Shown here one piece after another: positions 62,187 to 62,263 of a DNA stretch of 64,000 nt; positions within the stretch are counted from its first letter, which is position 1; the number at the start of each line of letters is the position of its first letter. Source of the stretch: Selaginella moellendorffii (Eukaryota > Plantae > Lycopodiophyta); NCBI RefSeq assembly GCF_000143415.4, contig NW_003314339.1, positions 816,893 through 880,892 of the forward strand, read 5' to 3'. The translations under genes were made by a program, and so were the position numbers. The notes below the pieces were generated by a model. It was not told the origin of the DNA and made no database searches. It was given only the letters and a program-made list of their open reading frames with translations.

Positions 62187-62263
62187 CACTATCCCTACTA
62201 TACATTTGGAACCCCCCACAGCCCCCCCCCCTTGAGGGACACACGCTTTGGGCTTTCACCCCA
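62187..62263 (-). promoter_or_regulatory. Pol I promoter-like module in 5' LTR (copy in 3' LTR at 55753-55829)
   Basis: Reverse complement matches IGS 63784-63860 with only a few mismatches. Confidence 0.8.

Follow-up and report, generated by a model that had tools for sequence, protein, structure and literature searches.

A copy of the probable 35S rDNA core promoter in the LTRs of two Selaginella moellendorffii retroelement families, with predicted use by RNA polymerase I

Several transposable elements are known to carry promoters or spacer sequences of host RNA genes. Cassandra, Ajax and Helenus have a host RNA-gene promoter inside the LTR; these are internal RNA polymerase III (Pol III) promoters of 5S or tRNA type, and the elements are short and non-autonomous (PMC10946416, PMC10886601). 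The RNA of R2 non-LTR elements is made by Pol I, but the element lacks its own promoter and depends on co-transcription within the pre-rRNA (PMC8789037). Among Galadriel-clade chromoviruses, Beon1, TRRT and Monkey have been found inserted in 35S rDNA, frequently in the 18S gene and in either orientation; their expression has been ascribed to possible read-through, and promoter capture is not described in the accessible parts of these sources (PMC3605345, PMC2679016, PMC10946416), the word "promoter" having no occurrence in the available text of PMC2679016. Pokey and mPok of Daphnia contain sequence of the rDNA intergenic spacer (PMC10946416, Table 2), but they are DNA transposons with internal 200-bp spacer repeats and no core promoter at an LTR start site. 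A 2024 review of the links between rDNA and transposons names, in its section 11 and Table 2, only 5S promoters, SINE28 and the Pokey spacer repeats, and no case of a Pol I promoter (PMC10946416).

Here, we describe a 64,000-nucleotide stretch of S. moellendorffii DNA (the window). It represents the margin of a plant 35S rDNA array that has decayed, with 18S, 5.8S and 26S pieces (Rfam), and two LTR elements in it, A and B, carry a module resembling the rDNA promoter (Table 1). In our main reading, to which we assign a probability of roughly 0.55, the likely core promoter of the 35S rDNA is present as a copy in the LTRs of SM2-Galahad and of a non-coding family; this copy is likely to be their own promoter, and Pol I is predicted to initiate there at the A that corresponds to the rDNA start. 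As in Cassandra, a host RNA-gene promoter would thus be present in both LTRs in sense orientation. In contrast to Cassandra, Ajax and Helenus, the promoter is an upstream Pol I core promoter, A is autonomous (7.4 kb) and B is non-coding and approximately 8 kb long; no 5S match was found in the LTRs of A and B (Rfam), and neither Cassandra-type 5S boxes nor the short TRIM form is present. Unlike R2, both elements have the promoter within their own sequence and are oriented antisense to the rDNA, and unlike Beon1, which is confined to the NOR, the families of A and B appear not to be so confined.

Table 1. Positions of the elements, promoter modules and associated features in the window
Feature	Position	Strand	Remarks
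Element A, intact chromovirus, 7353 bp	55459-62811	-	LTRs, TSD, PBS, PPT, ORF
TSD of A, 5 bp, GGGGC	55454-55458 and 62812-62816
5' LTR of A, 919 bp	61893-62811	-	TGT...ACA
3' LTR of A	55459-56377	-	module at 55753-55829, predicted +1 at 55762
Primer-binding site of A, 11 bp	61880-61890	-
Polypurine tract of A, 13 bp	56378-56390	-
Single gag-pol ORF of A	56986-61719	-	first in-frame AUG near gag at +478, giving 1577 aa
rDNA promoter module, 5' LTR of A	62187-62263	-	-67 to +10, predicted +1 at 62196
Element B, non-coding LTR element (LARD-like)	29392-37284	-	PBS and PPT present
5' LTR of B, 1914 bp	35371-37284	-
Module in 5' LTR of B	36295-36363	-	-65 to +4, predicted +1 at 36298
Module in 3' LTR of B	30228-30296	-
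8-bp element	62147-62154 (A), 36249-36256 (B)	-	+43 to +50, identical, same offset; not in spacer
Probable host rDNA promoter module	63784-63860	+	TATAGTAGGG motif, predicted +1 at 63851
241-bp tandem spacer repeats	51927-53037	+	behind 26S end; diverged module in each (52159, 52400, 52641, 52882)
Degenerate further spacer copy of module	53140-53215	+	rRNA direction
5S gene in spacer	54387-54505	same as 35S genes	linked arrangement; Rfam

The part of the rDNA spacer that separates the 5S gene from the promoter contains 16-bp subrepeats, in which element A is inserted in antisense orientation. Its two LTRs differ at 1 of 919 sites, a 5-bp TSD flanks it, and a single ORF encodes gag with a CCHC motif, PR, RT, RH, IN and a chromodomain, the start Met being residue 73 in an open frame of 1649 residues; A is therefore the intact chromovirus that the first-pass annotation had proposed. 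We take its PBS to be of the tRNA-Met type. SM2-Galahad of S. moellendorffii was described as an element of 7353 bp with 919-bp LTRs ending in TGT...ACA, a 4731-bp ORF of 1577 aa, an 11-bp PBS of the Met type and a 13-bp PPT (Novikov et al. 2012, PMC3350952). In size, LTRs, ends, ORF (4731 bp, 1577 aa), PBS, PPT, 5-bp TSD, group I chromodomain and host, A fits SM2-Galahad, a match made by published descriptors and not by alignment. The TSD (GGGGC versus CCTAT) indicates that A is another insertion than the published one, whose description, in its accessible text, does not mention a likeness of the LTR to rDNA (PMC3350952). SM2-Galahad is present in hundreds of copies per genome and shares a clade with Galadriel (PMC3350952), so that the earlier guess of a Galadriel-clade element came close. 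An RT-RH tree of 120 rows (quick mode, SH-aLRT only) was built from the protein of A (P0001) and 119 of the 120 listed homologues, one of which lacked the region. P0001 grouped on a long branch with a Riccia row and five unnamed rows (SH-aLRT 89), inside a 12-row clade (99), in a tree that contains no named reference; four further rows next to this group are presumably Galadriel-like, judging by their motifs. No relative was found among viral contigs searched with P0001, P0102 and P0037 or among genome contigs searched with P0001.

The modules in both LTRs of A lie in the sense direction of the element and are identical to the spacer module at 73 of 77 positions without a gap, with an equal span of 69 bp from GGGTG to AGGG; among 200 shuffled modules, the best match in the window was 42/77. 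The two-block pattern of the module occurs five times in the window and was absent from 100 shuffles. The A of TAGGG, at which the start is predicted, is position 616 of the 919-bp LTR, 304 nt from the LTR end just before the PBS. Both the near-identity of the LTRs to the start region of the intergenic spacer and the location approximately 300 bp upstream of the PBS, as stated in the first-pass annotation, were thus confirmed. Upstream of the module, the likeness of A to the spacer is weaker and extends to about -99. Outside the window, a metagenome scan for the 18-base upstream block returned 28 stretches, none of which (0/28) had the remaining module or a BLAST match to the window, and the two-block pattern was found in 51 stretches of prokaryote genomes and five viral stretches, where the only match to A, B or the spacer covered 20 bases (E 0.001). 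The module matches that these searches found outside the window are chance only.

Element B is absent from the earlier observation, and the presence of the module in two families makes the feature stronger than first described. The internal region of B (4141 bp) has no stop-free sense frame of at least 90 codons and no blastx match; its 5' end adjoins 18S sequence at 37285, and its 3' LTR is shortened and fused to spacer DNA. The modules of B are in sense orientation in both LTRs and match the spacer at 57 of 69 positions, again without gaps. Upstream of the module, the U3 of B contains an array of 6/12-bp repeats (36374-37053 and 30307-30998); it resembles the spacer subrepeat at about +30 to +80, just downstream of +1 (77-84% over 44-66 bp), and could be a captured enhancer-like array. 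The identification of B as SM1-Galahad was rejected, because the LTR size differs and no blastx match at E<=1 to P0001 and the 120 listed homologues was obtained. The LTRs of SM1-Galahad have poly-G tracts of 11-25 bp according to its description (PMC3350952), and these are possibly the same module.

The three-way comparison of A, B and the spacer reveals conservation in blocks. Over the 69-bp span, identities are 65/69 between A and the spacer and 53/69 between A and B. The upstream block (-65 to -47) is identical at 19 of 19 positions in all three pairs, and the core (-15 to +4) is nearly so (A-spacer 18/19, B-spacer 18/19, A-B 17/19). The segment from -46 to -37 is intermediate (8/10, 8/10 and 6/10, in the same order), and the G-rich stretch between the blocks is well kept only in A-spacer (20/21, versus 12/21 for B-spacer and 11/21 for A-B). 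A comparison of the LTR of A with that of B yields a single strong match, namely the module (E 4e-11; the next is 0.005); the U3 parts show no alignment above shuffles (151 versus 146 +/- 11), and the R/U5 parts are weakly related (134 versus 104 +/- 7, with a maximum of 127 in 300 shuffles). The module lies about two thirds along the LTR in A and half way in B. Since the two blocks were kept while the intervening stretch drifted and the LTRs barely align, the pattern points to selection on promoter function, and the comparison supports the view that the module has been kept promoter-like in two LTR families.

The module might instead be a functionless passenger, i.e. a piece of spacer that was acquired once or was repeatedly converted by recombination with neighbouring rDNA. 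Transposable elements often acquire modules of no benefit (PMC10946416), A is nearer to the present spacer than to B, which would fit recent refreshment, and no expression was seen in the RNA runs (approximately 12/100 of each read). We nevertheless consider this decidedly improbable: conservation is block-wise and gap-free in two LTRs that otherwise barely align, the 19/19 identity of A and B has a P of ~6e-5 if a background identity of 60% is assumed, and the likeness to the spacer falls sharply outside the promoter span. Because the U3 parts are unrelated and the R/U5 parts weakly related, a single old capture in a common ancestor is likely, A having been kept or refreshed nearer to the host. 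Even without any use by Pol I, the comparison of A, B and the spacer provides a natural footprint of a lycophyte rRNA promoter, with blocks at -65 to -47 and -15 to +4 at a fixed spacing.

How well is the spacer site itself established as the host promoter? It lies within the spacer in the rRNA direction, together with duplicates of the spacer promoter. The motif TATAGTAGGG is given as the TIS of oat (PMC5407837); the start-site motif of the spacer is identical to these 10 bases and close to the plant start consensus TATATA(A/G)GGG (PMC7928365). The minimal plant rRNA promoter extends from -55/-33 to +6 in Arabidopsis and from -77 to +42 in N. benthamiana (PMC7928365), and the span kept in the LTRs agrees with this extent. 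In the 241-bp repeats, the module copies retain 18 of 19 positions of the upstream block, and the core is altered. The spacer paralogues share with the 63784 site sequence downstream of +10 that the LTRs lack, which indicates that the spacer was the donor and substantiates the proposed copying from spacer to LTR. The opposite direction, in which an LTR donated the rDNA promoter region or 63784-63860 is an LTR remnant, would accord with the richness of spacers in transposon remnants (PMC10319768) and with the absence of an 18S gene from the part of the window downstream of 63860. This is highly improbable: besides the downstream sequence of the paralogues, the motif is the plant-wide start consensus (PMC5407837, PMC7928365), and in DNA run X9 the spacer from 63189 to 63860 is one contig with 7 differences in 672.

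RNA reads are in line with this assignment. Over 60900-64000, two RNA runs gave 277 and 133 reads, of which 263 and 125 fitted in part only, 247 and 117 of these carrying the loose end of a 241-bp repeat. The remaining 14 and 8 reads (22) cross the end of the window at 64000 in the rRNA direction; none lies wholly within 60900-64000, and depth is zero over 60900-63707 in both runs. The mean start of the 22 reads is estimated by bin arithmetic near 63886-63889, from few reads and with no exact start. Zero depth up to 63707 and sense reads downstream place an RNA 5' end between 63708 and approximately 63890, which is consistent with +1 at 63851 and is not proof of it. Start motif, spacer paralogues and sense RNA found only downstream together support 63784-63860 as the probable host Pol I promoter, in agreement with the first-pass annotation. 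As the window ends 150 bp after +1, 63851 could be the last spacer promoter rather than the gene promoter. RNA in the rRNA direction is far more visible in the 241-bp repeats (247 and 117 reads) than behind 63851 (14 and 8).

That the captured module is used as the LTR promoter seems to us highly probable, and we lean slightly towards Pol I as the polymerase initiating at the LTR +1. The main competitor, which we regard as unlikely, is that the module works as a Pol II promoter only. The TATA-like start motif would then serve as the core, the upstream block as an upstream element, and capped transcripts would start from about +24 to +32 or from +43. On the sense strand, TATAWA and AATAAA are absent from the LTRs of both A and B, leaving no other canonical TATA; the word TATTTA occurs three times in LTR A, in each case upstream of the module. 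The first A of the 8-bp element at +43 fits the Pol II initiator consensus YYANWYY; matches to this pattern occur at +43 in the LTRs of A and B and at +24 in B, and none in the spacer. A chance match is, however, expected at approximately 1 in 128 sites. Weak initiation by Pol II at plant rRNA promoters, from an altered site, has been reported (PMC7928365, citing Doelling and Pikaard 1996), and a start by Pol II alone would make the translation problem of A vanish. Against this, +43 lies 49 nt from the TATA-like motif, where 25-30 is usual (PMC7928365), and neither the exact host spacing from -65 to +4 nor the 20/21 identity of the G-rich stretch of A with the present spacer is obviously needed by Pol II alone. 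The lack of TATAWA and AATAAA in A and B also speaks for the main reading, since TATA and CAAT boxes have been reported in the LTRs of SM-Tcn1, also of S. moellendorffii (PMC2864245).

Returning to initiation by Pol I, we propose the following course. A common ancestor of A and B, probably at a time when it resided in rDNA, would have captured about -99 to +10 of the spacer promoter, and selection would then have retained the two blocks, as the predicted binding sites of the host's Pol I initiation factors. The uncapped genome-length RNA to be packaged and reverse-transcribed would be a Pol I product. Being non-coding, B would require no further RNA, which parallels Cassandra with Pol III. A would additionally require a translatable RNA. 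The predicted leader of A is structured and 477 nt long, with five AUGs ahead of the ORF start, and for an uncapped RNA this counts against the main reading. Rfam detected no IRES and no ribozyme at 61400-62300. The likeliest source of translatable RNA would be weak Pol II initiation in the same region, and not an IRES, either at the TATA-like start motif or at the shared initiator-like element at +43. Given the weak use of plant rRNA promoters by Pol II (PMC7928365), a promoter serving both polymerases is the simplest answer to the translation problem of A. Folding energies leave the start site unmarked: the z-score is -4.1 for the leader of A and -4.4 for the 969 nt of B downstream of +1, and in 150-nt windows B folds better upstream of +1 than downstream.

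Alternatively, the module might not act as a promoter but be bound by Pol I factors, so that the element or its cDNA is tethered to the nucleolus or acquires rDNA-like chromatin. Both elements of the window sit in rDNA, 35S rDNA is also where the Galadriel relatives Beon, TRRT and Monkey are found (PMC10946416, PMC3605345), and B also bears the array like the spacer subrepeat. Yet a promoter needs to be in sense orientation and mid-LTR, as the module is in both families, and the LTR depth argues against confinement to rDNA, which makes tethering improbable. The median summed contig depth of LTR A relative to the spacer is 2.0x in DNA run X1 and 4.3x in X9, and that of LTR B is 22x in X9; summed contig depth is not copy number, and the best-matching DNA run may be the window's own source. 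The interior of A has approximately 0.5-0.6 of the depth of the spacer. These depths fit hundreds of copies and not rDNA confinement. Together with the hundreds of copies of SM2-Galahad (PMC3350952), they lend no support to a restriction to the nucleolus, an idea best dropped, and the copies of both families are probably scattered and not limited to the nucleolus organiser.

For A in X1 and for B in X9, the module has a depth similar to the remainder of its LTR, which indicates that it belongs to the families in general and is no peculiarity of the copies in the window. In X9, depth in the module bin of LTR A dips (159 versus 753 in the adjacent bin) and that of the spacer copy rises; we read this, without proof, as contigs having been assigned to the spacer copy. 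Among the differences on the A stretch, C>T and G>A prevail (233 places in X1), a pattern expected for methylated repeats. At 62083-62190, several contigs of X1 join approximately 62110 to approximately 62186, the edge of the spacer likeness, with other sequence between; they may represent a related family that shares the module. In two runs (approximately 12/100 of each run read), RNA reads were absent from LTR A and from the initial 1 kb of gag. LTR B received 5, 8 and 12 reads in three runs, mostly less than 95% alike, on both strands and without a pile-up, and none fell on 35984-36271, just downstream of the +1 of B, in three runs read to the same approximate extent of 12/100. The near-silence of A and B neither supports nor refutes the use of Pol I.

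To date, a Pol I promoter in an LTR has not come to light in the open literature as covered by titles and the starts of abstracts. The accessible text of PMC3605345, PMC2679016, PMC2864245, PMC10886601, PMC10319768, PMC6317226 and PMC12477314 contains no such case, and that of PMC8724763 nothing on the question. The feature is real and apparently unreported. LTR promoter capture being known for Pol III in Cassandra, Ajax and Helenus, a Pol I promoter in an autonomous element would, if true, add a third polymerase. It would also offer a clean test of protein production by an uncapped or dual-polymerase retroelement and a way to escape silencing linked to Pol II. A broader reading, possible but somewhat doubtful, is that a lineage including an intact autonomous chromovirus swapped its Pol II promoter for the host Pol I promoter, has its genomic RNA made by the rRNA polymerase from dispersed sites and tracks the evolving host promoter; this trick may be ancestral to Galahad and Galadriel and would explain their link with rDNA. 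Pol I promoter capture would accordingly be a testable reason for the association of the Galadriel clade with rDNA.

The window contains further features of the rDNA array. Short plant telomere-type repeats are present in the spacer upstream of the promoter (63370-63400) and near the start of the window (3130-3156). A short fragment of the 26S 3' end (4614-4651) lies amid non-rDNA sequence and is followed at 4938-10227 by broken plus-strand frames with no Pfam match, which are probably a decayed DNA transposon. Within ITS1, a 5S rRNA-like remnant at 38869-38985 (and also from 10670), with a well-kept 3' half, was detected by Rfam (E 1e-4) and also aligned to the 5S gene of the spacer; it could be a 5S retro-copy or a remnant of a Cassandra-like LTR fixed in the rDNA unit. 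A Penelope-like element with 256-bp direct repeats is inserted in 26S at 12250-17645; its RT is 99% alike to SELMODRAFT_425932, and the element fits the 28S-targeted PLE-X families already described from Selaginella (PMC8557442). Several APE-RT LINEs are stacked head to tail, antisense at one 26S site, at 18947-28458 and 41873-50760, with an exact 85-bp duplication in the stack (46842-46926 = 50829-50913), and they resemble a plant LINE family that is specific for a site in rDNA.
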